Assembly: GCA_030595125.1 (NCBI GenBank)
Contig: JAUVDV010000007.1
Coordinates: forward strand, 9,039-73,038
From: Deltaproteobacteria bacterium
GTDB lineage: Bacteria; Myxococcota_A; Polyangia; JAAYKL01
Length of the DNA stretch: 64,000 nt
Reading direction: 5' to 3'
This document shows, in pieces, positions 22,924 through 60,970 of this stretch. The notes beneath the pieces are model-generated. The model had not been told where the DNA came from. It did not search any database and saw nothing but the letters and a program-made list of their open reading frames with translations. The position numbers and the translations under genes are program-made. Numbering within the stretch: the stretch's first letter is position 1; each line of letters opens with the position of its first letter.

Positions 22924-22969
22924 CCCCATCCCGGCCTTCCCCTGAGATAGGGGAAGGGGAAGATGATGG
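22924..22969 (+). repeat. About 45-nt conserved hairpin element, copy A (ccccatcccggccttcccct-loop-aggggaaggggaagatgatgg)
   Basis: 9-bp stem ccttcccct/aggggaagg with loop gagat. Lies between convergent gene ends. The same element occurs at 52841, 58478 and 60927. Confidence 0.8.
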
Positions 22970-22979
22970 GGGCCAACTT

Positions 22980-23297
22980 CTAGTGCCCTATTGAGCGCGT
23001 GAGCAGCCGCTCAATTAATCCCTGACTGTAGGTGGTGAGTTCGGTGAAGACCACGCCCATACCCGGCGGATCGTCCTCCACGCGCACCACCTCGCCGGTG
23101 CCCTCGATGGTTTCGATGTCCTCCATGATGACCGTGAACCGCAGGTTGACATAGGTGCCGATCTCGAGCGGAACCTTGGACCGGATGAAGACACCGCTCC
23201 TCGAAATATTCGTCACGTACTCATGGATGAACGCGTCGAAGCTCTCGAACTCCTTGTTGATCGTGACTCGTTCCTGGTCTCTATTTGAATCGTTCAT
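22980..23297 (-). CDS. PilZ-domain protein (c-di-GMP-binding type)
   Basis: 105 aa starting MNDSNRDQERVTINKEFESFDAFIHEY...LSRSGVFIRS...GTYVNLRF...GEVVRV, which matches the PilZ fold pattern. RBS aggagg upstream. ATGA overlap with the rng stop. Confidence 0.65.
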   Translation of the reverse strand: MNDSNRDQERVTINKEFESFDAFIHEYVTNISRSGVFIRSKVPLEIGTYVNLRFTVIMEDIETIEGTGEVVRVEDDPPGMGVVFTELTTYSQGLIERLLTRSIGH

Positions 23298-24847
23298 GAT
23301 TCCTCCTGGCCCTTGCCCGGGTGGCGGGCACGAACCTGAAATTCTTCCAAATGGACCGTCTTGTCGGACGTGACGATCACCTTTTTTCCGATCTTGTTCT
23401 GGAGCGCTTTCAAGGGGCGCGAGCCCTCGCCCTTGAAGACCTCGGCCACGAACGGGTGGACCTTGATCTCGATCTGAGGGCTTCGGATCTCGTCGTGACG
23501 TCGCCGGATCTCTCGAAGCACCTCGTTTGCCACCGTTACCCGCGAAAGGGTGTTTCCGGTTCCGTCGCAGTATATGCACCTCTCGTGGAGGGTGCGCCCG
23601 AGGCTCTCTCGTGTGCGCTCCCGGGTCATCTCCACCAGGCCGAATCGCGAGATCTGAATTACCGATGTCTTGGCCCGGTCGTTTTCGAGGACCCCCTTGA
23701 GGATCTCCATGACCTTGTTTCGGTTGGCAGGACGGTCCATGTCGATGAGGTCGAGCACTATCAATCCGCCGATGTTGCGAAACCGTACCTGGTAGGCGAT
23801 TTCCTTGACGGCCTCGAGATTGGTGCGCAGGATCATTTCTTCCTGATCCCTCGACCCCTTGCCCACAAACTTCCCGGTGTTGACGTCGATGGCGGTCAGC
23901 GCCTCACCCTGGTCGATGACCAGGGATCCACCCGATGGGAGTTCAACTACCCGGTCCAGAGCACGCTTGATTTCCTCCTCGATACCGAACGCGTCGAAGA
24001 TGGGCTCATCACCGTCGTAGACCTGGATAGAATCGAGCCGGGCGGGCATCAAACTGTCCACGAAATCCCTGAGTTGATTCGCGGTCTGGACGTCGTCGAT
24101 CACCATTCGCCCCACAGAATCGTTTAGGCGATCTCTTGCCGCGCGCAGGGGAAGCGACAGCTCCTCGTAAAGCAGCCCGGGTTTCGAACGCTTCTTGTAG
24201 CGGTCCAGGATCGATCTCCAGGTATCGGTCAGGTATCCGGAGTCCGCTTCGAGGGCGTCGGCGCTCGCGGATTCGGCAACGGTCCTGGCGATGAGGCCTC
24301 CCTTTCCCGGAGCGATGCGCTTCAGGATCTTGGAGAGCCTCTTGCGCTCCTCTTCCGTGGAGATTTTCCTGCTGATGCCTCCCCTGTCGCTGAAGGGCAT
24401 GTATACGAGGTGTCGCCCTGCCAGGGACACTTCGGCGGTGATCCGGCATCCCTTGGTGCCGATTGGATCCTTGGAGATCTGAACGCAGAGGGGTTCACCT
24501 TCCTTGACTATTTCCTTGATCGAGGTGCGTCGCGATTTTCGGCGAGGCTTGTCCCCGTTCTCGCGACCGTTCGTTTCGCCCGAGTTCGCATCGGTGAACG
24601 GTTCGAGTTCGTCACTGGTGACTATGTCGGACACGTGGAGGAAGCCGTGTTTCTCCAGGCCAACATCGACGAACGCCGCCTGCATCTGAGGAAGTACGCG
24701 ATTCACTCTTCCCCTGTAGATGTTGCCTACCAGGGAACGATTCTGAGCGCGCTCCAGCATCAACTCCACGATCATGCCGTCTTCGATCGCCGCCACCCGG
24801 GTTTCTCCGAAATCGACGTTGATGACAATTATGTTTTCTTGCGACAT
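23294..24847 (-). CDS. rng: Ribonuclease G/E family endoribonuclease (S1 domain plus RNase E/G catalytic domain)
   Basis: MSQENIIVINVDFGETRVAAIEDG...LVGNIYRGRVNRVLPQMQAAFVDVGLEKHGFLH...DVNTGKFVG...FRNIGGLIVLD.... Confidence 0.85.
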   Translation of the reverse strand: MSQENIIVINVDFGETRVAAIEDGMIVELMLERAQNRSLVGNIYRGRVNRVLPQMQAAFVDVGLEKHGFLHVSDIVTSDELEPFTDANSGETNGRENGDKPRRKSRRTSIKEIVKEGEPLCVQISKDPIGTKGCRITAEVSLAGRHLVYMPFSDRGGISRKISTEEERKRLSKILKRIAPGKGGLIARTVAESASADALEADSGYLTDTWRSILDRYKKRSKPGLLYEELSLPLRAARDRLNDSVGRMVIDDVQTANQLRDFVDSLMPARLDSIQVYDGDEPIFDAFGIEEEIKRALDRVVELPSGGSLVIDQGEALTAIDVNTGKFVGKGSRDQEEMILRTNLEAVKEIAYQVRFRNIGGLIVLDLIDMDRPANRNKVMEILKGVLENDRAKTSVIQISRFGLVEMTRERTRESLGRTLHERCIYCDGTGNTLSRVTVANEVLREIRRRHDEIRSPQIEIKVHPFVAEVFKGEGSRPLKALQNKIGKKVIVTSDKTVHLEEFQVRARHPGKGQEES

Positions 24848-24968
24848 GCGACCGTTAGCGCACTTTCTGTAATAGGACGGCCGGCGACAACCGCGGACCG
24901 ACCGGATGGAAGTGCTGAACAAAGGTACACTCCCATGCCATTGATGATCAAGATAACGATGAGGGCGC

Positions 24969-25664: not shown

Positions 25665-25672
25665 TGCTTGTC

Positions 25673-27013: not shown

Positions 27014-27033
27014 GATCGATGAGTTCCTTTCCC

Positions 27034-27894: not shown

Positions 27895-28003
27895 GGAACC
27901 AGGGAGAACTTACACCGAACCGGGGTTCCTGCTCAAGCTCCGGATTGCGACCGGCCCATATCGGGTCTATGTTAGCAATTGAGATGAAAGGTAAATATAG
28001 ATC

Positions 28004-29092
28004 ATGCAAACTACTTTATTCACAACAGCGCTGGCCCTGATCATACTTGGAGTCGTTTCGTGCGAACCGAGCTTGCAAGAACAGATCGATGCGGAGCTGC
28101 GGTCCCACAATGAGTATCTTCTGAATGTGGAGGCCGGTGGGACGACGGTCCCATTGGCCCTGAAGGCGGTATCCGCTGACAAGTCGCCGGATTCAACCCT
28201 GGCAACGGTCTTCAGTACCGATTTCGAAGCCAGCAACGGCGGTTTCACCGGAACCCTCGATTGGGAGTGGGGAGTGTATTCGTTCTCTCCGGTCTGCACT
28301 TCCTACGCTGCGCCGACGGCGCCCCATTCCGGTACCAACATGTGGGGTACGGTGCTGAATGACTGCCATACGAACATAGGAAACAACGACGGATACGATA
28401 CCTGCATCGCGACCAACACTGCGGATGACAGCATCCTCTCCTTCTCCGTCGATCTTTCGCCCTATACCACCGCAACCCTCTCGTTTTGGGAATGGACGGA
28501 CCTTTTCGCCAATTGGGACTGGGCCGAAATCTACGTAAACGGGACGAGCGTCTTTCAGCACTGTGGAGGTTCATACGTGGCGCCGACCGCATGGGTTGAG
28601 CAGACAGTGGACCTGACACCTTTCGTGGGCGGCAGCGCCGCAATCGAGTTTCACATGATGGCGTCGAGTGTTGTGGAACGGGCCGGCTGGTACATCGATG
28701 ACGTCACTGTTTACGAAGGCGGATCGACTGACACCGACACGGACACCGACACGGATACGGATACCGATACGGATACGGACACCGACACGGATACCGACAC
28801 GGACACAGGCACCGACACGGACACAGAGACAGACGCCGATGCTGGCACAGATACAGACGCCGATGCGGACTCCGACACCGATGTCGATACGGATTCCGAT
28901 GCCGATGCGGACACAGACGCCGATGCGGACTCTGACAGCGACGCCGATACGGATTCCGACTCGGATTCCGACTCGGACTCCGACTCGGATTCCGACTCCG
29001 ACTCGGATAGCCTCACCACCGATTCTTGTGCGTGCACTGCGGTGGGCCCTTCGGGAAAACGTTCTATCCTGTCTGTGTTGTCAGGGCTCTGA
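28004..29092 (+). CDS. (S/T)D-repeat lipoprotein with an N-terminal beta-sandwich-like domain (WYIDDVTV ending)
   Basis: Lipobox [11 protein letters not shown]. Globular domain ending [29 protein letters not shown]. Then a 90-aa TD/AD/SD tract. C-terminus [27 protein letters not shown]. Confidence 0.65.
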
Positions 29093-40107: not shown

Positions 40108-40192
40108 GTTCAAGCCCGTCTCGACTGTCAATTACGGAGCGGGCGACGTGAACAAGATGCCCCTGCCGCCGGGTTACGGAAAGAACCGTTGA
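40108..40192 (+). repeat. Direct repeat copy 2 (duplicate of the sulfatase 3' end), at the left boundary of the low-GC island
   Basis: Identical 60-mer plus the imperfect tail gg-aaagaaccgttgaca. Confidence 0.9.
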
Positions 40193-40223
40193 CAAGTATA
40201 GCTTTAACCCTTTTGTTATTCGT

Positions 40224-41186: not shown

Positions 41187-41198
41187 TTTACATCCTAA

Positions 41199-44960: not shown

Positions 44961-45435
44961 AGCAAATATCGGAAAAACCACTAAATGCTTGGGTATAGCT
45001 TGTTAGATGCCTCAGATACCTGTCTGTTTGGTGGTGTTTAGGCAGTTAAAATCCAGAAACAACACCGCTGTTTTTAGCGGATGCGGCGGAATAAACGTAT
45101 TTGATGAACTATTTTGCACATCGCCCTCTATTTAAAACTCAATAATTTAGAACTCAAAAATCTTTCAAAATACACAATAGTCTTTACAAGCCCATCTTTC
45201 AGCTTGATCTCCGGCTAACAATCCGGCTCCTCCTTTGCCACGATGATATAATGGGAGTCTTTTTCACGATAATACCTCTTTAATATCCATTCTTCGGAAG
45301 CACGTAGCCCGTATTAAGATATGTCATTATTGACAAACTACTGTCTAAAACAGCTTTTCAGCTGAGAAATGTTAAAATTGACACCTTCGATTAATGGCAA
45401 AATGCCATCGCTAAACACCAAAGGAGGGCACAGCG

Positions 45436-50149: not shown

Positions 50150-51325
50150 ATGCCCAAAATTGCCTCGATGAATTTTGATGCGCCGCCGAAGGTGGACAAA
50201 ACCATAGGAGCCATCGGGCCGGCGCTGGTCGGGGGCAAGATTATGTACCGTCCGAACAGCTCGATCTGGAACGGCCATTATCAGCACATATTCTGGATTG
50301 GCGTGAACGGGTACGTCATCGTGAATCATTACGAGCCCAGAGAAATAGTGCTGGTCGATCCCTGGCCGACCTACAGACCCTGGTTGAACAGGCTCACCAA
50401 GAAAGAGCACTGGAAGCGGCTCCTGGAACTGGCCAACTTCCTTCGTCGAGGTGTCGAGGAAGGGTACGCACTGTCCGGAGTATTGCTCACCCACGTTCAC
50501 TATGATCACACCAGGGATGTCCCGTTCCTTTTCGAGTTGCTGACCATGGCGCCGGGAAAACGAAAGAACCACAAGAGGGTCAAGTTCAACCTCGAAGGGC
50601 CAAAGGTGCCCGTCAACAAGTTGCCGACGATATGCTGCGATGGTGACACCGGGAAGGATTTAAAGAAGCGCTTCAAGAAGATATCGAAGCTCGCCGGATA
50701 CGATGGTTGGCACGACATCACCGATACAGGGGGAAAAAAACTGCATTATGACGACGTGTACAACGGTCACTCCCAAAATCCGCTCATGGCCGGAGTAGCG
50801 GCCCCGAGTTTTCCTGTCGGGGGGTTCACCGTACAGCCGTACATCTGGGATCATCTCAACGTGGGCCCCGCTGACAAGTGGGGAATCGGTCTTATCTCGG
50901 GAAGCTACCAGCGCATGTCGGCATTTCTCGTCTACAAATCGGAGGTGAAAAAAGCCAGACGGACGTTCATTGTCGGCAGCGCAGGTGAGATGAGCCGTGC
51001 GCACACAATCACGGTCGCCGATTCCGATATCAAGACCGATCTCCTGATTCAGTCCATCTGCAGCAATCGTGATCGCACCAACGAACTCGTGAAATACCAG
51101 TTGAGATGTGTGAAGAACCCCCGCTTCATTGCATGCTCCCACTGGGAGAAATTCGTCGGGGGGCCCGCCGATGGGAGCAGGCGAAAAAAGGACTTCCGCA
51201 AAAGGGTGAAAACGTACGTGAAAGCACTCGAGGGCAGCGGCGTGGATTCCCGGGTCTTTGTCTTTGCCAGGGCCGGGTTCGAGATGGATATGCCGGATAA
51301 ACCTTCGGAATTTTTGCACATCTGA
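50150..51325 (+). CDS. MBL-fold metallo-hydrolase-like protein
   Basis: LLTHVHYDHTRD (HxHxDH). Otherwise unrecognised. Confidence 0.55.
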   Translation: MPKIASMNFDAPPKVDKTIGAIGPALVGGKIMYRPNSSIWNGHYQHIFWIGVNGYVIVNHYEPREIVLVDPWPTYRPWLNRLTKKEHWKRLLELANFLRRGVEEGYALSGVLLTHVHYDHTRDVPFLFELLTMAPGKRKNHKRVKFNLEGPKVPVNKLPTICCDGDTGKDLKKRFKKISKLAGYDGWHDITDTGGKKLHYDDVYNGHSQNPLMAGVAAPSFPVGGFTVQPYIWDHLNVGPADKWGIGLISGSYQRMSAFLVYKSEVKKARRTFIVGSAGEMSRAHTITVADSDIKTDLLIQSICSNRDRTNELVKYQLRCVKNPRFIACSHWEKFVGGPADGSRRKKDFRKRVKTYVKALEGSGVDSRVFVFARAGFEMDMPDKPSEFLHI

Positions 51326-51332
51326 TCTGATA

Positions 51333-52334
51333 TCACGGAAAAACCAGGATGCGCTCCTCTCCGTGTTTAGCGATCAATTCGTCCACGTGGGCGATCAATG
51401 CGTCTCTTCTGGCTAGCAAGAGCGCGATCTCCGATTTACGAAGCAGCGCTCGACCCGGGCCGGTGGGTCCCCACTCCACGGCATCCGTCACCGCTCTTTC
51501 TTCGAGCTCTCGCAATCGGGAAATCAGGGCGACGGAGAATCTCTGACACGACGAAAGCAGATCGTCCATTCTCTCGTGCTGCCGTTTCGACCAGTTCGAG
51601 AAAGAGCCGTTATTATCGATCAGCACGAGGGAAGAGCCGGAGCTGTCGGCGAACAGGTTCCCGCCCGAGAACCGATCCCAGTTTCCGGTCACGTAGTCGA
51701 GCACTACCATTGACGACGCGGGCGCAACGAGCGGTTCTTCGCCGGACGTGGGACCGTCAATGGAGAGGAGCAAGTCAAGCTTCACGCGACCCTTGCGACC
51801 ATCGAATCCGGACTCGACGATATCGTCCATCCAGGCGATCATTGCGCCGGAGACCGCCCCGTTGTTACCCGTGAGCGCCTCTTTCCCAAGGGATGAAGCT
51901 ACATCCGGGAAGTGTTTGTCCAGGTGTCCCATGAGCCTGGAAAGTGGGATCTCGTGCATGATCGAGGGGGGCACCCTCTCCACCCCGAGCAATTTTGCGA
52001 GGCGGAAGTAAGCAACCTCGAAACGGGCGGTGCGGTTGTCACGGCGCATGGGCTTGAAGACCGCAACATCGCCTTGCGCCAGCCTGATCTTCAACGACAG
52101 GGACCGCATCGAGATTGGACGCACTCCAACCATTTTCCCGCCGACGAGATTTTTTGTCATGTCTTCGGGCAAGCTTGCCGGTGGGGCAGGTTCTTCCACC
52201 TGAACGCGAGGGATCACGTCCTCCTTCGCCACCCGGGTAACCGGCCGATCTTTCTCGCCCGAATGCTCACCCGTTCCCGAGCAACTCAAAGTCAGGACTC
52301 CGAACAAAAACGTCCGTATGGTTATTCTGGTCAT
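51333..52334 (-). CDS. Hypothetical lipoprotein. Possible Fam20/Fjo-like secretory-kinase fold (speculative).
   Basis: Lipobox FGVLTLSCSG. Segments VLDYVTGNWDRFSGGN and LVLIDNNGSF are reminiscent of the DxG/DNGRGF region of FAM20-type kinases. Confidence 0.45.
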   Translation of the reverse strand: MTRITIRTFLFGVLTLSCSGTGEHSGEKDRPVTRVAKEDVIPRVQVEEPAPPASLPEDMTKNLVGGKMVGVRPISMRSLSLKIRLAQGDVAVFKPMRRDNRTARFEVAYFRLAKLLGVERVPPSIMHEIPLSRLMGHLDKHFPDVASSLGKEALTGNNGAVSGAMIAWMDDIVESGFDGRKGRVKLDLLLSIDGPTSGEEPLVAPASSMVVLDYVTGNWDRFSGGNLFADSSGSSLVLIDNNGSFSNWSKRQHERMDDLLSSCQRFSVALISRLRELEERAVTDAVEWGPTGPGRALLRKSEIALLLARRDALIAHVDELIAKHGEERILVFP

Positions 52335-52464
52335 TAACTCCCTCTTGTCTGGGATATACTAACCGAATGCTGTCTTTACAAAACTAAAACGGTGGTCCTT
52401 GACAGCGGGCGGGGGCACCCTTTAAGGTGCTTGCCTCGTTTCGACGAGGTGGAGGGATAAGAAA

Positions 52465-52830
52465 ATGAAGAAAAAAGAGAAAGACAAGTTTAAAAAGATA
52501 TTGATGGGCAAGCGGGACAAGCTCCTGGTCAACGCGCGCCAGACTCTCGATGAAGACATGACCCTTGACAAGGCCGATCTCGCGGACGAAATGGATCTCG
52601 CCTCCAGCGAATATCTGCAGTCCTTCCAGTTCCGGTTGAGAGGCAGGGAGCGAACCTTCCTGAGCAAAATCGACAAGGCGTTGACAAAGCTGAAGGACGG
52701 ATCTTTCGGTGTTTGCGAGTACTGCGGCGAGCCCATCCACACCAAGCGCCTCGAAGCAAGGCCCGAGACCAATTTGTGCATCAGGTGCAAGGAAGAGCAA
52801 GAACGCGAAGAACAGCAGTTCGGCGACTAG
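52465..52830 (+). CDS. DksA/TraR-family C4-type zinc-finger protein
   Basis: Coiled-coil N-terminus plus CEYCGEPI...RLEARPETNLCIRCK. Confidence 0.7.
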   Translation: MKKKEKDKFKKILMGKRDKLLVNARQTLDEDMTLDKADLADEMDLASSEYLQSFQFRLRGRERTFLSKIDKALTKLKDGSFGVCEYCGEPIHTKRLEARPETNLCIRCKEEQEREEQQFGD

Positions 52831-52840
52831 AAGCTGGCCT

Positions 52841-52884
52841 CCATCATCTTCCCCTTCCCCTCGCAGGGGAAGGCCGGGATGGGG
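52841..52884 (-). repeat. Conserved hairpin element, copy B (reverse orientation)
   Basis: ccatcatcttccccttcccctcgcaggggaaggccgggatgggg. Lies between the convergent dksA-like and histidine-kinase stops. Confidence 0.8.
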
Positions 52885-52886
52885 TC

Positions 52887-54623
52887 CTACCGGACCGGAA
52901 TGCTCACCAGGAACGTCGTTCCCCCGCCTCGCACAGTCGTGAAATTGATTTTACCCCCATGCGCTTCGACGATCTCTCTGGCCACCGCCAGACCCAGCCC
53001 CGTACCGTTTTCTTTGCCCAGGGTGACGAATGACTGAAACAGGGAACCCTGAATCTCATCCGGTATTCCCGGACCCGTGTCGGTGAAGCTGAAGATCAGC
53101 TCATTGCCGAGTCTGTCCACCTCGAAAATCATCTTTCCACCACCGACCATTGCCTCGGCGGCATTGATGGCAATGTTATTGAACGCGCGGATCATCTTCT
53201 CGGTGTCCAGCCGTACGGAGCCCGCCGTGCGCAGGTGGATCTCCAGTTCCACATTGTTCGACTTGAGGTGCTGCTCGACCTGTCCCCTGAACTCATCGAC
53301 GAACTCGGGAAGAAGACAATTGCTGGGAAGGACCCGGCGCTCCCCCCTGGAGAAGGCGATGATCTCCGCAGCCATCATTGTGATCCTGTCGAGGGCCGCG
53401 TTCACGTGTTCGAGGTAATCATCACCCTCCCGCGTGTCGACCCTGGCCGCCAGCATCTCCGCATACCCGGAGACCACGGTGATGGGCGACTTGAGGTCGT
53501 GAAGGACGCCTGCCAGAAGCCTGCCTACGGTTGCGAGTCGTCGTTCGCGCTCACGCACGACACGATCCGTGAGATGGTCCACGGCGGACGCGAGCTGGGC
53601 GGCCACGAGCCGCAGCAACATCAGATCGGGCTCCGTGAACCCGCCCTCCGCGCCCCTGTTGGCCACGAGCAGAGCCCCTCGCATGTTTCTATCCTCGGGG
53701 AACGGAAGCGGAACTGCGGCCAGGTTCTTCACGGCGATGCCGATGCGTTTCTCGATGCTGGACTGAAAACGCGGATCTCCCGCCGGCTCGTCGATCAGTA
53801 GTTCCTGACCCCTGGCGGACACCCATCCGCAAAACCCCCTCCCTGCATCCACCCGGATGACCCGGCTCGTCTTTGCGTCCGAGGTCAGTACTCGGATCTG
53901 TGCTCCGGAGTCGTCCATGCTATGGAGGATGGCCACCCCTGCATCGCAGATCTTCAGCACCCTGCCGAGAATTGACGCTGCCAGGGAGTCCAGATCCTCG
54001 GCCCGCGCCACGAGACGCTCGAGATCGAGCAGGAGGTTCAGCTCCCTGTTTCGACGCTCGACGTCGATCTTTGCATTGGTGATGGCGCGGTTCTTTTCGA
54101 CCAGGTCGATCATCATGACCGAATTCTCGACCGTGAGCGCGAGCTGCCCGCAGAGCAGGCCCAGGATCTCCAGATCCTCCTGGTCGAAAGTACCGTCGAT
54201 CCTGTTGAGCACCTCGGCGACACCGATGACCGTGCCGTGCCGCCCGAGGATCGGATGACACATGATGTCTCGCGTGACGAAGCCTGTTTTCTCGTCCCAG
54301 GTGGGATCGAATCGCTCGTCCAGGCTGGTGTCGGTCACGATCAACGGTCTTGCGTGACGGGCAGCCCAGCCGGCAACTCCCTGTCCTGGCGCGAGGTGGA
54401 TCTCGTTTACGCCGTCACCTTCGATGACTCTCGACAACAGATCACCATCGGAATTCACCAGGAAGAGCGTGGATCGCTCCGCTCCCATGAGTCGAGTCGT
54501 CCTCTCCACCGCCATGGTGAGAATCTCGTCGAATGTCATGGTGGATTCGAGGGCCAGGCCGATCTCTCTCAACACACTGAACTGCTGCTCGGCTTTTTCG
54601 AGCCGACGCTCCATTTCGGTCAT
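52887..54623 (-). CDS. Sensor histidine kinase with two GAF domains
   Basis: GAF-like regions. H-box LHDLKSPITVV. HATPase GTGLGLAVAREIVEAHGGKI. The upstream part of the long ORF is an out-of-frame read of the neighbouring gene, so the start is set at MTEMERR (54623), with a GTG four codons upstream as an alternative. Confidence 0.68.
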   Translation of the reverse strand: MTEMERRLEKAEQQFSVLREIGLALESTMTFDEILTMAVERTTRLMGAERSTLFLVNSDGDLLSRVIEGDGVNEIHLAPGQGVAGWAARHARPLIVTDTSLDERFDPTWDEKTGFVTRDIMCHPILGRHGTVIGVAEVLNRIDGTFDQEDLEILGLLCGQLALTVENSVMMIDLVEKNRAITNAKIDVERRNRELNLLLDLERLVARAEDLDSLAASILGRVLKICDAGVAILHSMDDSGAQIRVLTSDAKTSRVIRVDAGRGFCGWVSARGQELLIDEPAGDPRFQSSIEKRIGIAVKNLAAVPLPFPEDRNMRGALLVANRGAEGGFTEPDLMLLRLVAAQLASAVDHLTDRVVRERERRLATVGRLLAGVLHDLKSPITVVSGYAEMLAARVDTREGDDYLEHVNAALDRITMMAAEIIAFSRGERRVLPSNCLLPEFVDEFRGQVEQHLKSNNVELEIHLRTAGSVRLDTEKMIRAFNNIAINAAEAMVGGGKMIFEVDRLGNELIFSFTDTGPGIPDEIQGSLFQSFVTLGKENGTGLGLAVAREIVEAHGGKINFTTVRGGGTTFLVSIPVR

Positions 54624-54669
54624 ATTGAGTTCGGTCACCAGCTCCCCCCTGTCATGAATGGGACCGATA

Positions 54670-55875
54670 TTACGACTTGGTGCCGCACTCGGGGCAGAAC
54701 TTTGCGTCGTCTTCGAGTTTGGCACCGCAGTTGCTGCAAAACTTGGGACCCTGCGCCAGGGGCTGGCCACACTCCGCGCAGAACTTGCCCGGCGCCACCA
54801 GCTTGCTGCATCCGGGACACGTGACGCCCGCGCCTGCTGTCGCCTGGCCGGCTGGAGTTTGCGCGCCCGCGAGGGCGCCCGCGCCACCCTGGGCTCCACC
54901 CTGGGGATAACCCTGCTGCTGGGGTGGCAAGGGAGGCGCCTGCTGCTGCTGCATTCCCTGCTGCTGGAACATCCCGGCCATCCCGAACCCGACGCCGAGC
55001 GCCGCGCCTCCGAGCATGGCGTTTCCGCCGCCGCCACCGCCGCCGCCGCCTTCTCCACCACCGCCACCGCCCGCAGCCATCCCTTCTCCGGCGCCCATCA
55101 GTGCCTTGCCCGAAGCGAACTGCTGGAACCCCTGCATGCCGCCGGCCATCCGCACATACGCGGCGTCGGTGTACAGCTTCTTGAGGGTCTTCTCGTCCTC
55201 TTCCTTGATCCCGATGACGAAGTTGCCCATCTGGGCGATGCGCACGCCGTAGTGCTCAGTGTACTTCTTGACGCCCTCGAGGACCGTTACCTCGATCTCC
55301 TCGGTGTACGCGCCGGAGACCACGTCGAGCAACGGCCACTTCTCCTTGACGACGAGCTCGGCGATCTGATCGCGGATGACCTTCAACACCTGCTGCTTGA
55401 ACCAGTTGAAGAAAGAATCGTTGTCCGACTGCTGCATGCCCACGAGCCCGATGATGAGTTGCTCCGGGTTGAAGACCTGCAAGGCGAAGTCACCGTGGAC
55501 CAACGTCTCGACGGGAACGCCGGACTTGGGATCCTCCACCGAGCCGATTCGCCCGCCGAACTTGATGCCCGGAAACTGCCGCGTGGAGACGAAAAACACC
55601 TCGGCGATAAGGACGTTGCCGCCGGTGAACGAGTCGACCAGGTTGGACAGGAACGGTATGTTTGAGGAATTCAGGGTATGCCGCCCCGGTGGGAGCTTGC
55701 CCTCAACCTTACCGTCCTTGAAGAAGACGGCTACCTCGTCCGAATCGACGGTCAACTGAGCGTAGTTGGGAATGGTTTGATCCGGGTGCTTGTAAATCGC
55801 GAAGTTTTTGGCTTCGTCCGGTCGCGCGATCATCATCTCCTGGACGCCGCGCTTCAGAAAACTGCCGATACCCAT
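54670..55875 (-). CDS. SPFH (band-7) domain protein with a Gly/Gln-rich linker and a C-terminal double zinc ribbon
   Basis: RBS aaggagag. The SPFH region runs from MGIGSFLKRG to YVRMAGG. Then GGGGGGEGGGGGGGGG and Q-rich stretches. Then CPGCSK...CAECG...CSNCG...CPECG. Confidence 0.68.
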   Translation of the reverse strand: MGIGSFLKRGVQEMMIARPDEAKNFAIYKHPDQTIPNYAQLTVDSDEVAVFFKDGKVEGKLPPGRHTLNSSNIPFLSNLVDSFTGGNVLIAEVFFVSTRQFPGIKFGGRIGSVEDPKSGVPVETLVHGDFALQVFNPEQLIIGLVGMQQSDNDSFFNWFKQQVLKVIRDQIAELVVKEKWPLLDVVSGAYTEEIEVTVLEGVKKYTEHYGVRIAQMGNFVIGIKEEDEKTLKKLYTDAAYVRMAGGMQGFQQFASGKALMGAGEGMAAGGGGGGEGGGGGGGGGNAMLGGAALGVGFGMAGMFQQQGMQQQQAPPLPPQQQGYPQGGAQGGAGALAGAQTPAGQATAGAGVTCPGCSKLVAPGKFCAECGQPLAQGPKFCSNCGAKLEDDAKFCPECGTKS

Positions 55876-56083
55876 GTCTCTCTCCTTCGCCTGATAAAAA
55901 AAAGGCGGATGCTTAAAAAACTCTCGTACTCGAAGCCTGAAAGTATAGTGTCCACCCGCTATTCGGTCAACGAGCCCGCTCGTCAATCCCGCAGCATCTC
56001 GGGTGTATCCGGTCGAGCCTCTTTTTCTGTAAGAGATCGGTCGAAAAAACGCTACAATAACGCACCCTAATCTGGAGGTTGCC

Positions 56084-57262
56084 ATGCGATTCCACTTCAC
56101 GCTCCTGTTCAAGACGATACTGCTCCTGTCGCTCCTCATCGGCTGCGGCGGGTCCGGGAAAAGGCCCGGGAGGTCGTCCGATCCCGACGCGGAGGAAACC
56201 GATACGGAAGAGCGGATGACCTCGGAGGATATGATCCCCCGGGCCGTGCTTGTTCGCGCCGAGTTTACCCGTGAGGTGGACTTGCAACGCTTCAAGGCCA
56301 CGGGCGAGATCCTCAAGGAATTCGATCCGACCGTGGATGTCATTTACCTGGTGGGCAAACTCAAGCGGGTGCCCACCCAGGCGACGATCGAGGTTCGCTG
56401 GTTTCGGGATTCCAGGAGGGATCCCATTCTTATCTCGGACGTCCTTGGTTCGGACAGCTTCTCCTTTGTGGCCGATTTTCGACCCGTCGAGGAGGATTTC
56501 ATCCCCGGATCACACACGGCGCGCGTATTTATTGACGGCGCGGAGGTGAGTGGCGCCTCGTTCACGATCACGGGGGAAGATCCCTTCGCCGCCGGGGTGC
56601 GCGTCAAGAAGCCGACCGTTTCCACCCGGGTGACCCGGAAGATGAAGCCCCGGCAGCCATCCAAACTATTCAAGGAAAAGACAAAAAGGCTCCACGTCAC
56701 TTTCGACATCGAGAACGCTACGCCTGGAACCGAAGTTACCGTGCGCTGGCTACGCAACGGCAACCTGTTCAACGAACAGGAGGTCGGCGTGGCGCCAAAG
56801 GGACGGTTCGGGAGCGAGATCGAATCCCCCTCCGGGCTGCCCTCGGGAAACTACACTGTGGAGATCGAGGCAAACGGCGAATCGAAGGCCGAAACCCGCT
56901 TCACTATCGGGGAGGTGTCCAATGGACCGGCGGTTGATCTCCTGGCCCTCGGTCTCGCTCTGGGCGGCGATAACCTGCCCACGGTGGAGCAGACGGTGTT
57001 CAAGGTGGGTCACCCGGCCGTCAAGTGCGGCTTGAGATTTCTGGACGTGCCCCCGGAATCGATCGTCGAGGTTCGCTGGATCCAGTTGGAGGAAGACAAC
57101 GAATCCACCTGGCACACCACGCGCACCGCTGTGACCGCCGGAGGATCCGGGACATTGAGCGCTGTGTGGGAAGCGAACGGCTCTTTTTCGGAAGGGGCGT
57201 ACAAGGTCGTCGTGCTGATCAACGACGTGGCCGTGGCCGAAAAGGAATTCACTATCGAGTGA
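56084..57262 (+). CDS. Hypothetical lipoprotein with internal repeats
   Basis: Lipobox LLSLLIGCGGS. Two related segments (IEVRWFRD... and VEVRWIQLEED...). Confidence 0.5.
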   Translation: MRFHFTLLFKTILLLSLLIGCGGSGKRPGRSSDPDAEETDTEERMTSEDMIPRAVLVRAEFTREVDLQRFKATGEILKEFDPTVDVIYLVGKLKRVPTQATIEVRWFRDSRRDPILISDVLGSDSFSFVADFRPVEEDFIPGSHTARVFIDGAEVSGASFTITGEDPFAAGVRVKKPTVSTRVTRKMKPRQPSKLFKEKTKRLHVTFDIENATPGTEVTVRWLRNGNLFNEQEVGVAPKGRFGSEIESPSGLPSGNYTVEIEANGESKAETRFTIGEVSNGPAVDLLALGLALGGDNLPTVEQTVFKVGHPAVKCGLRFLDVPPESIVEVRWIQLEEDNESTWHTTRTAVTAGGSGTLSAVWEANGSFSEGAYKVVVLINDVAVAEKEFTIE

Positions 57263-57890
57263 TGTTGTTCATGGAGATAATTATCTCCTGATTCGGGGCG
57301 CCGTGCATGTGTTTCATGGGATCCACTGCCTTTCCCCTCACCAGCAGGGCGAAGTGCAGGTGCGACCCCCTCGATATACCCGTGTTGCCCACATTGCCGA
57401 TCACATCGTTCCGCTCGAGTCGTTGTCCCGGCTCGACCTTGAAGCGATCGAGATGCGCGTACAGGGTGACCCATCCTCCCGTATGCAACACCATTACCAG
57501 ATTGCCGTACCCCTTCACTTCGTTGTCCGAGTAGCCGACTATCCCCGGCGCCATCACGTGGACGGGAGTTCCTGTGTCCGCCGTGATATCGACGGCGCGA
57601 TGTCGCCCGTTGTCCGATTTGAAGCCCCTCCCGAGGCGATGATTGGGGATCGGCCACTGGAGATAGCCCGGAGGCTCAAATCCACCCGCGGCCATCTCCC
57701 AGTTTATGGGGAATTCTCCGTTCAACAACAGAGTTGCCGCCCTCCGGGTTCCAAGACCCAATTCATCGGCCAGCTTTCGCGCTTCGACGTGACTGAAGAC
57801 CGTGCCCTGGGCACGACTGCTCAGGGAAACGGAAAAAAAGGCGGTCAAAGACGCCAGAAGCAAGGCTGTTGTTAAAAAAGGATATTTCAT
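57252..57890 (-). CDS. M23-family (LytM-type) metallopeptidase
   Basis: Signal peptide. HRAVDITADTGTPVHVMAPG...GNTGISRGSHLHFAL (HxxxD ... HxH). Confidence 0.75.
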   Translation of the reverse strand: MKYPFLTTALLLASLTAFFSVSLSSRAQGTVFSHVEARKLADELGLGTRRAATLLLNGEFPINWEMAAGGFEPPGYLQWPIPNHRLGRGFKSDNGRHRAVDITADTGTPVHVMAPGIVGYSDNEVKGYGNLVMVLHTGGWVTLYAHLDRFKVEPGQRLERNDVIGNVGNTGISRGSHLHFALLVRGKAVDPMKHMHGAPNQEIIISMNNITR

Positions 57891-57988
57891 TATCTTCGCG
57901 TTCCTCGAACGTTCGAAACGCGATGATTATCGCGGTTATTCCCGTCTCGTTCAAGAAACTTGGGTTCGATCCCGATGAAACGCCGGAG

Positions 57989-58459
57989 CTATGCGAACTC
58001 TTCGATGAGCTTGTCGTCCCACTCATCCGCAACTGTGGCGACCGTGTGTAAAATGTCCTCGAACTCGGCATATTCGAGCCCGTTGACGGAGCGGAGCGCG
58101 CGCAGGCACACAGTGTCGGTTTCCTTTTCGATGGCAAACGCGCCGTCCGAGGTGGCCAGGAAATTCAACTCGAGCAGGTGTCTGTAAAACTCGGTACTAC
58201 GTTCTTTCGGGATCTTCATTATGCGAGACAGGAAGAGCAACACACCCTGCTCCTCGATGACGTTGATCCCGATGGTCGCCGACCCCCTGTTTATGCTCGT
58301 GTATCCGTCACCATCTAGGGGATCGAACATCACCGAGTCACCGGTCGCCTCCGACACCTTCTGAGAAAACCTCTTGATGAACTCGTTGATCAACGCAACC
58401 GCAGTGGGATGCTCCTGCCCCGTATCCCGATCGATATATCGGTTGTCCATCTCGGTCAT
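57989..58459 (-). CDS. YbjN-like domain protein (putative sensory-transduction/chaperone-like)
   Basis: Size and secondary-structure pattern only. Weak. Confidence 0.45.
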   Translation of the reverse strand: MTEMDNRYIDRDTGQEHPTAVALINEFIKRFSQKVSEATGDSVMFDPLDGDGYTSINRGSATIGINVIEEQGVLLFLSRIMKIPKERSTEFYRHLLELNFLATSDGAFAIEKETDTVCLRALRSVNGLEYAEFEDILHTVATVADEWDDKLIEEFA

Positions 58460-58477
58460 TTTGGATCCTCCTTTTTG

Positions 58478-58524
58478 AAGCCGGCTACCATCATCTTCCC
58501 CTTCCCCTGCCGCCAGGGGAAGGT
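58478..58524 (-). repeat. Conserved hairpin element, copy C (reverse orientation, 6-nt loop)
   Basis: ccatcatcttccccttcccctgccgccaggggaaggtcgggatgggg. Confidence 0.8.
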
Positions 58525-58544
58525 CGGGATGGGGTTTTTAAAAA

Positions 58545-59567
58545 CTATCTGAATCCAACAATCTCTTCGAGTGCAATTGTAACCATGCGATCGAGCTTCG
58601 ACGGTTCCTGCGCGGGCAACGGCAACCTGCGGCTCCGAAGGAACTCCTCCGTCCAGGTAGTCTCGAACCGCGCCGCGCTCATCCGTCGCTTGAAAAACGC
58701 CCCGACGGACCAGCGGCACGTCTTGTCCATGCGAGACAGCGCACGACGGGCACCCGCCGCCAGATCGAATCCAGCCGGAACATGCTCCCTCGCAGACACC
58801 GAGATCCCGTCCACGATTTTCCCGGTGTCGCCTCCGAATCGAGAGAGGAGGTGGAGGGTTCTGCCACCGGGGTCCGGATCGACATCCTTCAGGCCTACCA
58901 CCACGTCGACCAGGTAATCCAGATCCGTGAGGATGAGCTGCCCGTTTCCCTCCCAGGGGGTGGAGTCCCCGGCGGCCAGGCACAGATGAACCAGCGGGCA
59001 CAGATTTTCACCCTCTCCGACGATCCAGCCTGACCGGATCACCGTTATGGGTACGTCTCCGAAGTGCCTGCGATACACCCGCTCGGCGGCGAGACGCATC
59101 TTTGCAGATCCCCCGTCGAACCGCTGGCCCACGATAAGATCCACTTCGCGAAAAGTTTCTCGGTGATTTCCCGCAACGTCCAGATGGGACAACACGACCA
59201 CCTGTTGAAGGTTCTTCGCCGCCGCCGCCAGCTCCAGCACCTCTCGACCGGTGGTCCTGGCGGATTCGAGGTCGTCTCCGTCCGGATAGGAACACGGGGG
59301 CACCAGGTTGTAAATCGATGAGACCTGTTCGCTCAGGCGTCCGAACCGTTCCCCGGACAAGCCGAAATCAATATGGTTCCAGTCGCCTTCAATAATCTCG
59401 ATTTTCGCGCTCTCTCGTCGGATTAGCTCCCTTGCTCGAGGTAAATCGGATGGGCGGACTATTACCTCGACGGACATCTCGTTGCCGGATGCCAGTCCCA
59501 GGGCCACGCGACAGGCCGGCTCCGCAGGGAAACCCAGGATCAGAGCTGTTCTGCCGGGTTCGCTCAT
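58545..59567 (-). CDS. Hypothetical protein. Possibly a degenerate NAD(P)-binding epimerase/reductase-like fold.
   Basis: 340-aa ORF whose stop overlaps the coaE start. No clean GxxGxxG. Confidence 0.4.
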   Translation of the reverse strand: MSEPGRTALILGFPAEPACRVALGLASGNEMSVEVIVRPSDLPRARELIRRESAKIEIIEGDWNHIDFGLSGERFGRLSEQVSSIYNLVPPCSYPDGDDLESARTTGREVLELAAAAKNLQQVVVLSHLDVAGNHRETFREVDLIVGQRFDGGSAKMRLAAERVYRRHFGDVPITVIRSGWIVGEGENLCPLVHLCLAAGDSTPWEGNGQLILTDLDYLVDVVVGLKDVDPDPGGRTLHLLSRFGGDTGKIVDGISVSAREHVPAGFDLAAGARRALSRMDKTCRWSVGAFFKRRMSAARFETTWTEEFLRSRRLPLPAQEPSKLDRMVTIALEEIVGFR

Positions 59568-60193
59568 TTCACTTCTCCCGAGTAACGTTCTTTCAACACA
59601 GCGATCAGCTTTTGCGTTTCTTCCTTCAGTTCCTCGACAGTTCCATTATTTTGAATCACATGGTCGGCCACTGCCAGCTTTTCGTCTATGGGAAGCTGCG
59701 CCGCAATGCGCACGGCGGCGGCTTGCCTGGAATACCCCTCTCGGAAGCCCAGCCTTGTCAGCTGGTTTTCCAGAGAACATGAGACGACAATCAGGGCTTC
59801 GAGGCTCTCGTGGATTCCGGTTTCCACCAGCAGCGCCGCTTCGTATACGGCCAAGTGTAGTCCTTTTTGCGCGATCATGTGAAGGCCCTGGCCGGCGAGC
59901 TGTCCTATGGCGGGGTGGGTGATCGCCTCAAGAGCCGCCCGCCGGTCTGGATTATCGAACACTATCTTGCCGAGCTTCTGCCGGTCTATGGTGCGATCGT
60001 CGACTCCGAGAATCCCGGTTCCGAACTCGTCAACGACAGCCTGGTAAGCGATGCCGTCCGGCTCCAGGGACAGGTGCCCAAGGCCGTCCGCGTCGATTAC
60101 CGGGATGCCGGCGCTCCTCATTATTTCCGCTACAGTGCTTTTGCCCGAAGCGATGCCGCCGGTGAGTCCGACAACGGTGAGATTGGTGGTCAT
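59564..60193 (-). CDS. coaE: Dephospho-CoA kinase
   Basis: VGLTGGIASGKST P-loop. ...THP.I... Confidence 0.85.
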   Translation of the reverse strand: MTTNLTVVGLTGGIASGKSTVAEIMRSAGIPVIDADGLGHLSLEPDGIAYQAVVDEFGTGILGVDDRTIDRQKLGKIVFDNPDRRAALEAITHPAIGQLAGQGLHMIAQKGLHLAVYEAALLVETGIHESLEALIVVSCSLENQLTRLGFREGYSRQAAAVRIAAQLPIDEKLAVADHVIQNNGTVEELKEETQKLIAVLKERYSGEVK

Positions 60194-60226
60194 GGCATTG
60201 TCAGATTCTGCGCCCCCCAAAAGTGT

Positions 60227-60853
60227 TTAGAAGAGCCCGTCAAGGGAGTCGTCATCCCCGCCCTCGTCTTCCTCCGGCTCCGGCTCCGCCATGCCGCCCA
60301 CTTCCTTCTCATCCTCCGGAGTTGTCCCGAAGCCGGCGGAAGTGGCGAAATCGTCGTCCATCACCGTGGTCGGGCCCTTGTTATCGGCGGGTTTGAGGCG
60401 CTTCTTTGCGCGCTGCAGTTTGACCGCCTCCCATTTTTTTCCCGCGTCGTCCTCGCCGTAACCCCACTCGCCCTTGACCCAGTGCACCATACGTTTCTTG
60501 GTGGTGCCTTCTTCAATGACAATGTACTTGAAATACCCGCCTCCCGTGGAATCGGCTATCTTGCCGCCCACCTTGGTGTTGGTGCTGGTCCATCGGAATT
60601 TATACAGATCTCCGGTGACCGTACCCTCCATGCGTCCGTACCTGCTGTCGCTCTCGAAGAGCCCGACCGCGTTTGATCCATCCACCGTGATCTCCAAACG
60701 GCCCCATGCGGGGGACTGATATATCCCGTCGAAGGTGCCGTCCTGCGGCATATTTCCCGCCCTGGCAGCGGATTTTCCGGGCTGAGGGCCGCCACAGCCG
60801 AATGCCACAGCCAAACCCAGAACGATAATTGTGTTTACAATCCAGTTTTTCAT
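60227..60853 (-). CDS. Hypothetical lipoprotein with an acidic C-terminal tail
   Basis: RBS gggagga. Lipobox VLGLAVAFGCGG. C-terminus EPEPEEDEGGDDD. Confidence 0.45.
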   Translation of the reverse strand: MKNWIVNTIIVLGLAVAFGCGGPQPGKSAARAGNMPQDGTFDGIYQSPAWGRLEITVDGSNAVGLFESDSRYGRMEGTVTGDLYKFRWTSTNTKVGGKIADSTGGGYFKYIVIEEGTTKKRMVHWVKGEWGYGEDDAGKKWEAVKLQRAKKRLKPADNKGPTTVMDDDFATSAGFGTTPEDEKEVGGMAEPEPEEDEGGDDDSLDGLF

Positions 60854-60926
60854 GGCTTCCTCCCATTCATTGGACGCGGTGCAGTTTAGCAAGCCGCAAT
60901 TCAAGCTGCAACGTTGAACTCCATTT

Positions 60927-60970
60927 ACCCCATCCCGGCCTTCCCCTGCGAGGGGAAGGGGAAGTTGTTG
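60927..60970 (+). repeat. Conserved hairpin element, copy D
   Basis: ccccatcccggccttcccctgcgaggggaaggggaagttgttgg, in the divergent intergenic region upstream of mglB. Confidence 0.8.

Follow-up and report, generated by a model that had tools for sequence, protein, structure and literature searches.

The 64-kb window, the whole stretch of DNA that was analysed, carries four copies of a short hairpin-containing element, here called A to D, all of which are intergenic. The copies and their neighbouring genes are listed below.

22923..22982, + strand: copy A, 60 nt, loop GAGAT
52828..52885, - strand: copy B, 58 nt, loop GCG
58476..58535, - strand: copy C, 60 nt, loop GGCGGC, G12A
60927..60985, + strand: copy D, 59 nt, loop GCG, 3' arm GTTGTTGG, atypical tail GCATCATA
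21202..22923, + strand: secreted protein with MopE-type metal-binding motifs, stop codon abutting copy A
22980..23579, - strand: PilZ-domain protein, stop codon inside the last 3 nt of copy A
52465..52830, + strand: DksA/TraR-family protein, stop codon inside the last 3 nt of copy B
52887..55067, - strand: GAF histidine kinase, stop codon 1 nt from the first base of copy B
57989-58459, - strand: CesT/YbjN-like protein, downstream of copy C in the tandem pair 57989..59567
58545-59567, - strand: NAD-binding protein, upstream of copy C in the same pair
61100-61582, + strand: MglB-like protein (Roadblock/LC7), downstream of copy D
61600-62187, + strand: MglA-like GTPase, downstream of copy D

The positions and orientations given in the original prediction were confirmed in the window sequence, as were the gene contexts: copies A and B lie between convergent genes, copy C between tandem genes and copy D upstream of the MglB/MglA pair. 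Copy A shares its first base with the end of the upstream TAA stop codon, and its last three nucleotides (CTA) read on the opposite strand as the TAG stop of the PilZ gene, which is convergent. Copy B occupies the entire gap between the convergent histidine kinase and DksA genes, its terminal CTA being the TAG stop of DksA on the + strand. The true start of the kinase gene may be downstream of the listed ORF start. Copy C is located 10 nt past the upstream TAG stop and 16 nt ahead of the downstream ATG, with AAGGAGG in between, and copy D precedes mglB by 114 nt within a divergent region. The stem pattern CCTTCCCCT-N(2-12)-AGGGGAAGG matched four times in the window and never in 100 dinucleotide shuffles, and AGGGGAAGGGGAAG, with up to two mismatches, gave four matches against a shuffle mean of 0.84. 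An nhmmer profile search of the window returned no additional or degenerate copy beyond the four.

The repeat unit was found to be 57 nt long, a period set by head-to-tail arrays whose members abut, with the consensus ACCCCATCCCGGCC-TTCCCCT-GCG-AGGGGAA-GGGGAAGATGATGG-mGGCCrGCTTTA. A C-rich 5' arm leads into a single invariant 9-bp hairpin, which is followed by an asymmetric 3' arm and a tail. The extent of about 45 nt originally assigned to the element is thus too short, as the conserved block extends 12-14 nt further 3' (...GATGATGG-aGGCCaGCTTCTA) and the window copies measure 58-60 nt. The perfect 9-bp stem in each copy and the loops gagat, gcg, ggcggc and gcg were recovered as described. 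The flanking arms, which had been considered non-complementary, can in fact pair in three of the four copies, A, B and C (CCCCATC with GATGG(GG)). Since this pairing is not kept in copy D or in the GTTGTTGG subfamily, what is conserved in the arms is their sequence rather than a helix.

Among the matches listed, 131 of 142 unique copies share an identical stem, with eight single substitutions and no compensatory change, and two 3'-tail subfamilies carry one common hairpin. Variation confined to the loop had been taken as the pattern of either a structured RNA or a protein-recognised DNA site; the first part of this proposal found no support, whereas the second is probable. The invariance is that of a homogeneous repeat family, the hairpin of which is probably recognised as DNA.

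A pattern search in relatives, which had been suggested in order to obtain the copy number, revealed a large dispersed family that is not restricted to the window. The core motif occurs at a minimum of 109 loci in GTDB genomes and the window-type element at no fewer than 120 loci in metagenomes. Among the matches listed, related Myxococcota-like metagenome DNA totalling 1.15 Mb contained 171 copies, of which 149 are distinct in their flanks; the window itself holds four in 64 kb. The repeat has spread to hundreds of intergenic sites in an uncultured marine-sediment Myxococcota-like lineage, and the family has not been described before. Most of the 171 listed copies are singlets (131, or 77%), while 32 (19%) belong to head-to-tail arrays and four (2%) have an inverted neighbour within 400 nt. 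Adjacent copies share their orientation in 12 pairs and oppose each other in 12, indicating no local strand bias. Related modules, consisting of an ACCCYATCCC arm and the same hairpin, are present in Dehalococcoidia and Undibacterium.

The junctions of the element show a distinct signature. Among the matches listed, the left flank of 132 solo copies has T at position -3 in 51%, T at -2 in 66% and A or G at -1 in 90% of cases, where the background frequency of A and of T is 20.5% each; the right flank opens with A in 73%. No more than about 35% of copies have TA directly in front, and the sequence at site D does not match TTR^A. With regard to the suggested test for a flanking target-site duplication, none was found, including in clean pairs of filled and empty sites; the within-copy identity of the left flank to the copy's own 3' end or right flank, at position -1, was 59% compared with 54% after permutation (p = 0.12), and this lack of a significant correlation argues against a duplication. 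Copy positions peak sharply where they abut stop codons. According to crude stop-to-stop ORF calls, on which the stop-codon and orientation statistics rest, the upstream stop ends on the first A of the element in 20 copies and an antisense stop uses the terminal TTA in about 26 (both among the matches listed), and 28 copies are sense-only and 34 antisense-only relative to genes, which amounts to no bias. Copies A and B of the window exhibit both overlaps. Furthermore, a same-strand Shine-Dalgarno sequence and start codon follow within 17 nt (11-17 nt) downstream in 22 of 149 copies among the matches listed.

In relatives that have diverged by about 10%, orthologous sites are filled, empty, or marked by a deletion scar that lacks the hairpin. 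Site A is filled in L166, with a GCG loop and a 14-nt duplication of the 5' arm. Site B is filled in L117 and L218 and empty in L114, where 2 nt separate the two genes, and site C is filled in L114, L117 and L218. The element is cleanly absent at site D from L112 and L113, which encode an identical MglA and have otherwise identical flanks, whereas L114 and L117 carry a copy there whose interior has been replaced. The comparison of L201 (filled) with L065 (empty) likewise shows a clean insertion. Presence/absence polymorphism, as expected of a mobile repeat, was therefore observed at sites B and D and in the L201/L065 pair; at both B and D, subtracting the element from the filled sequence leaves a 1-nt difference from the empty allele. 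Scars without a hairpin were found in L065, L029, L210 and at site E of L117, and copies decay by deletion between the internal GGCC/CCGGC direct repeats of the element.

At orthologous sites, divergence was 10.3% in the flanks, 11.1% in the tail and 2.1% in the core, the loop being replaced in four of nine pairs; a scar lacking the hairpin has diverged by about 23% between L114 and L117. Intact cores thus diverge approximately five times more slowly than their flanks, in a comparison that is partly ascertainment-biased because the copies were found by patterns fixing part of the core. When only the free stem positions were considered, there was one mismatch in 51 positions versus 270 in 2625 (p = 0.057). 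The slow divergence of the core would imply that individual copies are homogenised by replacement or conversion or, alternatively and by analogy, that the host keeps them as post-stop-codon hairpins for mRNA 3'-end protection or insulation. Such protection and insulation after stop codons are documented for the REPs of E. coli.

We consider it about 65% probable that the four hairpins represent a high-copy, non-coding, REP-like dispersed repeat of an uncultured Myxococcota-like marine-sediment lineage, and in our reading the element is a REP-like hairpin repeat that is non-autonomous or was once mobile. Under this reading, an enzyme acting in trans would mobilise it, or would have done so recently, through recognition of the invariant hairpin as DNA, and would insert it at TTR^A sites. 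With A as its first base and TTA as its last three, an element that enters a TAA or TGA stop on either strand would regenerate the stop, and for this reason copies could persist in an exact fit between the ends of genes. The 3' end of a resident copy (...TTTA^A) would itself be a target, giving head-to-tail arrays. Slippage could equally give rise to such arrays. The likeliest class of enzyme, as a candidate only, would be a single-strand HUH/Y1 transposase of the IS200/IS605 or RAYT type.

The search for a mobilising gene gave no candidate in the DNA examined. All genes enclosed by inverted or direct pairs of copies are housekeeping genes, no multi-copy IS-like segments were found, and no RAYT was detected near any copy. 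A tblastn search with approximate Y1 transposase sequences as queries found no TnpA or other Y1-like match in 1.8 Mb of incomplete genome sequence. The CGTC REPs have no identified transposase either (Di Nocera et al. 2013, PMC3733652).

The original prediction had named a REP/MITE-like element as one candidate. Copy number, presence/absence polymorphism, arrays and sequence-level conservation bear this out in the broad sense, but the strict definitions of a REP (GTAG/CGTC tag) and of a MITE (terminal inverted repeats and target-site duplication) do not apply. Like the enterobacterial REP/BIMEs and the GTAG/CGTC REP superfamilies, the family combines a short GC-rich palindrome with a conserved motif that stays unpaired at one of its ends (PMC3733652). 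It also shares with tagged REPs a high copy number, with hundreds of extragenic copies mostly downstream of genes and between unidirectional or convergent ORFs, termini that often provide stop codons to flanking ORFs, and the existence of head-tail dimers (PMC3733652). In contrast, the GTAG/CTAC and CGTC/GACG tags that define tagged REPs (PMC3733652) are absent from the 57-nt consensus and its reverse complement, and the unpaired conserved motif is ACCCCATCCCGG instead. A GTAG beside copy B is the stop-codon context of the kinase gene and is not conserved in other copies. The 57-nt unit, with its long asymmetric 3' arm and tail, also differs from REPs of 20-40 nt (PMC3733652), and the host phyla are not those of tagged REPs.

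REPINs associated with RAYTs are, like the present repeats, non-autonomous hairpin elements that are homogeneous within a lineage, persist vertically at orthologous sites and can be excised (PMC3116915). Their mobilisation has been proposed to proceed via a single-strand Y1 transposase without target duplication (Bertels & Rainey 2011, PMC3116915). REPINs are, however, inverted REP doublets, which account for 93% of doublets in SBW25 (PMC3116915), whereas the listed copies of this family are mainly singlets and very few have an inverted neighbour. A REPIN doublet folds into one long hairpin, and its RAYT, a Y1 transposase, is encoded in the same genome by a single-copy gene with the cognate repeats on either side.

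As in IS200/IS605 elements, insertion occurs directly 3' of a short specific sequence without duplication, and a hairpin and asymmetric ends are found in place of terminal inverted repeats. IS608 and ISDra2 insert in this manner, recognising DNA hairpins. IS200/IS605 elements nevertheless have a sub-terminal hairpin at each end and a replication-strand bias, and no local strand bias was seen here; with its one hairpin, the element differs from both REPINs and IS200/IS605 ends, which have two. MITEs (Neisseria Correia, ERIC, RUP, bcr1) are also small, non-coding, intergenic mobile repeats that are present or absent depending on the strain and can affect neighbouring transcripts. MITEs are bounded by terminal inverted repeats and flanked by a duplicated target site (TA in the case of Correia), and this family has neither feature: its 3' end GGCCGGCTTTA does not repeat its 5' end ACCCCATCC in inverted form, and only internal segments pair. 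MIRUs form direct head-to-tail arrays of units of about 50 nt in the intercistronic spacers of operons, abutting stop and start codons, but they are not hairpins and mostly occur as local variable-number arrays, whereas this family consists mainly of dispersed singlets with an invariant hairpin.

The foremost alternative, which we regard as unlikely, is a family of transcription terminators or attenuators whose palindromic stem works in both directions and evolved, or was recruited, to end or damp transcription after genes. The stable stem, the location directly behind stop codons, in the gap of convergent gene pairs (A, B) and within an operon (C), and the conservation of intact cores at orthologous sites are all consistent with such a role, as is the Dehalococcoidia-type relative, in which a T-run directly follows an extended hairpin, as in a canonical terminator. 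The window type has no T-tract on either strand, however, GGAAGATGATGG and CCGGGATGGGGT following the stem, and a terminator scan of 51000-62500 did not place copies B, C and D among terminator-like sites, so that the bidirectional terminator first suggested is not supported in its canonical form. A terminator would have no need of the 21 + 24 nt of conserved non-stem sequence, nor would it be expected 11-17 nt upstream of the start codon of the next cistron or, as with copy D, in a promoter region where a near-identical strain dispenses with it. In addition, the hundreds of near-identical copies point to copying and not to convergent evolution. A weaker effect of the hairpin after stop codons may exist.

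Somewhat more doubtful is a host DNA site for a chromosomal protein (a nucleoid-associated protein, gyrase or a regulator) that serves chromosome organisation or supercoiling relief at gene ends, its spread being secondary. Conservation of sequence beyond the stem, slower divergence of the core than of coding flanks, and the absence of an orientation bias, as expected of an orientation-independent function, agree with this proposal, and a precedent is found in the E. coli REP/BIMEs, which are bound by gyrase and IHF (PMC3733652). Against it, the data point to no protein partner, close relatives differ by gain and loss of sites, with two of the four window sites dispensable, and the TTR^A junction signature and the head-to-tail arrays are left unexplained.

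The proposal of a small structured RNA or a multi-copy cis-regulatory RNA motif, to which the stable hairpin, the variable loop and the intergenic location had lent some weight, is largely refuted and very improbable. The suggested covariance-model search with Rfam 15 gave no hits in the window at the gathering threshold, and at E values up to 10 only miRNA/RNase P noise (E 0.8-2.3) appeared around copy B. The absence of compensatory changes, folding z-scores of only -0.7 to -1.9, the use of both orientations relative to genes, the arrays and the presence/absence polymorphism, including the absence of copy D from between otherwise identical flanks in a relative, are inconsistent with an RNA.

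A REP-like intergenic repeat is by itself an ordinary class of feature. The present family falls outside the definitions of tagged REPs, REPINs and MITEs and yet has a precise junction signature and a stop-regenerating geometry, making it a tractable case in the search for a new mobilising enzyme or target rule. Because its intact cores diverge slowly, the element is also a candidate for host co-option at gene 3' ends. REP-like repeats are usually regarded as vertically inherited; finding the arm-plus-hairpin module in three groups of bacteria that are far apart prompts the question whether they have spread horizontally. A bolder and less probable reading would see a third, hitherto unrecognised superfamily of tagged hairpin repeats, common to Myxococcota-like bacteria, Dehalococcoidia/Chloroflexota and a betaproteobacterium, and characterised by the unpaired ACCCYATCCC arm, the hairpin CCTTCCCCT/AGGGGAAGG and insertion after T-R. 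A putative horizontally transferred TTR^A enzyme would have spread it, stops would have been regenerated on either strand, and intact copies might later have been kept by the host as hairpins behind stop codons.

Some metagenome contigs (L111, L123, L144, L170, L193) begin or end inside copies or arrays, but an assembly or k-mer artefact has a negligible probability, given that contig breaks are the expected consequence of a real repeat and that copies bordered by unique sequence to left and right are found again at orthologous positions in assemblies made independently from different samples, among them those of A, B and C in L166, L117, L218 and L114. As an aid to annotation, the family accounts for contig breaks and for gene ends apparently without intergenic space in the uncultured sediment lineage, as well as for spurious ORFs such as 60227-61144(-).

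The hairpin repeats of the window are best explained as members of a REP-like family of mobile hairpin repeats, either non-autonomous or relic, whose insertion at TTR^A is compatible with stop codons; we infer the mobilising enzyme and any host function of the repeat. All four copies of the original prediction were found in the window on the expected strands, and the gene contexts ascribed to them agree with the Pfam annotation, from which these neighbours are taken:

22923-22982, + strand: copy A, between the convergent genes of a MopE-motif protein and a PilZ protein
52828-52885, - strand: copy B, between the convergent genes of a GAF histidine kinase and a DksA/TraR protein
58476-58535, - strand: copy C, between the tandem genes of an NAD-binding protein and a CesT/YbjN-like protein
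60927-60985, + strand: copy D, upstream of the genes of a Roadblock/LC7 protein (MglB) and an Arf-like GTPase (MglA)

The stem pattern gave four matches in the window and none in 100 dinucleotide-preserving shuffles, and a profile search found no additional or degenerate copy there. With regard to the extent of the element, alignment with the flanks and the family data confirmed the predicted core but placed the 3' limit 12-14 nt further out. The outer arms had been described as non-complementary, but minimum-free-energy folding of copies A, B and C pairs CCCCATC with GATGG(GG). This pairing is absent in copy D and in the whole GTTGTTGG subfamily, so the arms are not maintained as a helix. Both ends of copies A and B coincide with the stop codons of the flanking genes; these copies thus fill the entire space between convergent genes. 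A 305-aa ORF without a Pfam match runs through copy D (60227-61144, - strand). Given that the gene called in relatives is only 208-210 aa long and stops before the element, this ORF is an artefact of a frame left open through the repeat.

A scan with the stem plus GGAAG as the pattern, in which a single genome represented each GTDB species, revealed at least 109 loci, which fall into three groups: the window type, represented among the matches listed by the metagenome-assembled genomes (MAGs) CSMAG_2956 and CSMAG_220, a Dehalococcoidia/Chloroflexota type, and single cases elsewhere. A metagenome scan with the outer arms fixed and the stem and loop free gave at least 120 loci. In total, 1.15 Mb yielded 171 window-type copies, of which 149 are unique as judged by their flanks. 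The unit is exactly 57 nt long, as set by abutting head-to-tail arrays (ACCCC...GCTTTA|ACCCC...). One hairpin is common to two subfamilies, whose 3' arm and tail read GATGATGG-mGGCCrGCTTTA in the first and GTTGTTGG-AAACCCGCGTTR in the second. Of the 149 copies, 114 have the loop GCG, and GTG, GAGGT, GAGAT and GGC recur as variants. The stem is invariant in 131 of 142 unique copies; eight carry a single substitution each, and none is compensated. It is therefore the sequence that is conserved, as in a recently copied repeat, and not the structure.

The junctions of 132 solo copies carry a clear signature. T stands three bases upstream of the element in 51% and two bases upstream in 66%, and A or G stands directly before it in 90%, against a background of 20.5% each for A and T; A follows directly in 73%. 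This T-T-R + A junction mirrors the end of the element itself, ...GCTTTA followed by A. The left flank shows no within-copy correlation with the copy's own tail beyond their common consensus, and TA precedes only about one third of the copies. These flank statistics rule out a TA or TTAA target-site duplication and argue for a target preference instead. The junction of the Dehalococcoidia type is alike (T in 66% at -2, A or G in 99% at -1, then ACCC).

The relation to genes was assessed with crude stop-to-stop ORF calls, which gave two sharp peaks: in 20 copies an upstream sense stop (TAA or TGA) ends on the first A of the element, and in about 26 the terminal TTA/CTA, read on the opposite strand, is the stop of a convergent gene. 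By the same calls, the orientation of copies relative to genes is unbiased (28 sense-only, 34 antisense-only, 34 both). Adjacent copies on one contig were found in opposite orientation in 12 cases and in like orientation in 12. A Shine-Dalgarno sequence and start codon lie within 17 nt downstream of 22 of the 149 copies, and copy C is placed likewise. An element that starts with A and ends with TTA, once inserted at TTR^A, would regenerate a TAA or TGA stop on either strand, so that insertions at stop codons would be neutral and survive. The 3' end of a resident copy would itself be a target site, which could account for the head-to-tail arrays and for frequent insertion beside decayed older tails.

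Gain and loss of copies were followed at orthologous sites. Window positions 1-1518 match a contig of the cold-seep MAG 'Deltaproteobacteria bacterium CSMAG_220' at 92% identity. The window MglA is 100% identical to the protein P0002 and shares 96-97% identity with proteins encoded on long contigs of CSMAG_2956 (GCA_030621515.1) and an ENA metagenome scaffold; remoter matches carry the labels Myxococcota or Polyangia. The syntenic loci L114, L117, L218 and L166 show 86-93% DNA identity and thus represent different species of one genus. Site D, the locus of copy D, is filled in the window (CTCCATTT[59 nt]TTGATTTG) and cleanly empty (CTCCATTCTTGATTTG) in L112/L113, which encode an identical MglA and have otherwise identical flanks. 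In L114 and L117 the termini are kept and the interior is replaced and longer: in these copy-D orthologues (L114 9261-9386, L117 9294-9384), 35-75 nt with CCTCCTTCGCCAAGG(G)CTAC repeats replace the 5' half of the stem. Among 240 loci, this motif occurs only at site D (L114 and the overlapping L115). At site B, the window, L117 and L218 carry a copy; L114 has none, and 2 nt separate its convergent stop codons there. Site C is filled in every locus compared. The search across all collected loci yielded a further clean filled/empty pair, L201 and L065; as a direct example of stop-codon regeneration it was rejected because the site is intergenic.

Several apparently empty alleles are scars, in which ACCCCATCCCGGC is joined directly to the tail, the last 12 nt of the repeat. 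They were found at these positions:

L065, about 5700: scar
L029, about 6000: scar
L210, about 2800: scar
L117, 17642-17686: scar

The comparisons of L065 with L231 and of L029 with L234, and also L210, show that scars arise by deletion between internal GGCC/CCGGC direct repeats, which takes out the hairpin. At an unbiased site (L117, about 17.66 kb), the scar has diverged by about 23% from its L114 orthologue.

Across nine orthologous, non-identical pairs of copies, the flanks differ by 10.3%, the 12-nt tail by 11.1% and the 42-nt arms plus stem by 2.1%, part of this core being fixed by the search patterns; the loop was replaced wholesale in four of the nine. When only the free stem positions of three re-matched orthologous pairs were counted, there was one mismatch in 51 versus 270 in 2625 (p = 0.057). 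At sites B and C of the loci found through MglA, which were not ascertained by the element, a hand count gave two changes versus about ten expected at the flank rate. The slow divergence of the core, together with the fast decay of scars, indicates that intact copies are either homogenised by replacement or conversion or retained by selection.

Among known families, the element behaves like a REP and has a trait in common with transposons of the IS200/IS605 type. Duplication-free insertion after a short specific sequence is a hallmark of IS200/IS605-type single-strand transposition, and the window type inserts in this way, but it has one hairpin only, no strand bias and no detected transposase. 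REPs are dispersed extragenic hairpins with an unpaired conserved arm, located after genes, with termini that supply stops and with head-tail dimers (PMC3733652). The window-type element resembles them in its hairpin, unpaired arm, post-gene position, stop-supplying ends and head-tail dimers, but it carries neither the GTAG nor the CGTC tag and is therefore not a member of the tagged REPs. In Pseudomonas SBW25, doublets account for 61% of REPs, and 93% of these doublets are inverted (PMC3116915), whereas inverted doublets make up just 2% of window-type copies, which are thus not REPINs. Nor is the element a MITE, given that it has neither terminal inverted repeats nor a target-site duplication. 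An attC/integron site, suggested by the AAC...GTT-like ends, was rejected on account of mixed orientations and ends that are off consensus, and a pseudoknot between 5' CCCGGCC and 3' GGCCGGC because the second subfamily has AAACCCGCG in place of the 3' segment, with the 5' arm unchanged. A canonical terminator was dismissed, since no copy has a T-tract and the terminator scan called none. Rfam gave no match at the gathering threshold in the whole window and nothing meaningful at E up to 10 around copy B, and the window contains no tRNA or tmRNA.

As candidates for an autonomous parent of the REP-like repeat, the genes enclosed by paired copies were rejected, being either housekeeping genes or unrelated ones. 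Inverted pairs enclose genes for NUDIX, RNase J, RlmN, a sigma-54 activator, SAICAR synthase and an M20 peptidase; between direct pairs lie genes for DUF374 and a PHA-granule protein, together with two unannotated ORFs without similarity to transposases; and in Dehalococcoidia the enclosed genes are those for S9, phosphoglucomutase, MaoC and SDR. With IS200, IS608 and RAYT queries of approximate sequence, tblastn found no Y1-transposase-like match in 1.8 Mb. Self-BLAST revealed only orthologous overlaps and no multi-copy coding segments, and annotated plasmids and phages did not match the element. In the searchable literature, its sequence strings are absent from any bacterial context, and the search for papers describing such repeats in Myxococcota or Dehalococcoidia was negative.

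The arm-plus-hairpin module is distributed more widely. The very abundant Dehalococcoidia/Chloroflexota type has the 5' arm (ACCCTATCCCC...) and hairpin in common with the window type and a different 3' module. In addition to the T-R junction of the window type, this element of about 88 nt, ACCCTATCCCCTTTATCC-CCTTCCCCT-TGATA-AGGGGAAGGGGAAGAT-T(6-7)-AAGAGGGGCTTCGCCCCTCTTAAACTCCC, has a T-run and a second hairpin, and it resembles a canonical terminator. A third variant, AAACCCATCCCC...CCTTCCCCT-TGA-AGGGGAAGGGG, occurs in the cultured betaproteobacterium Undibacterium danionis. Examples are:

L037, 3609-3636 and 5947-5974: Dehalococcoidia/Chloroflexota element (among L001-L109)
L052, 4232-4259 and 6206-6233: Dehalococcoidia/Chloroflexota element (among L001-L109)
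L023, 127-175 (- strand) and 207-255 (+ strand): head-to-head inverted doublet of Undibacterium danionis CCM 8677

The Undibacterium doublet adjoins genes for a U32 peptidase and an HD phosphohydrolase, with no RAYT within the 8 kb examined. Many contigs support the Myxococcota-like context, and many the Dehalococcoidia context; the labels of L081, L100 and L104 may reflect MAG contamination. In IMG/VR, one contig carries the Dehalococcoidia type at both ends, and a broader pattern matched no contig. The one contig, L110 (IMGVR_UViG_3300034984_000069, 8067 nt), is classed as viral and has its copies at 4-34 and 7986-8036 in the same orientation; it may have been broken at repeats, or its call as circular or viral may be wrong. 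In an Oscillospiraceae MAG, L013 5154-5184 is a perfect 35-nt palindrome, GCCTTCCCCTTCCCCT-CAA-AGGGGAAGGGGAAGGC, which lacks the ACCC arm; here the pattern has probably picked up an unrelated hairpin.

Other features of the window were also observed. Positions 40200-45000 form a low-GC island (GC 0.39 versus 0.58-0.60 elsewhere) with genes for a GT4 glycosyltransferase, a GNAT acetyltransferase and a DegT/DnrJ aminotransferase, unannotated ORFs and no visible transposase, which is probably a horizontally acquired sugar-modification cluster. At its edge lies a perfect 60-nt direct repeat (38881-38940 and 40108-40167, spacing 1227 nt), whose first copy forms the 3' end of the gene at 36701-38944 (747 aa); the repeat may represent a duplicated integration site. 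Hexanucleotide-period (GAYWCN)n repeats at 2344-2609, 17815-17966, 21312-21716 and 28688-29019 give rise to long runs of Asp-Thr/Asp-Ser in the products of four different genes, one of them the MopE-motif gene that precedes copy A, and similar stretches occur in the related loci L003 and L005. Finally, positions 1529-1709 hold an apparently coding 48-nt tandem repeat of 3.8 copies with 93% matches.
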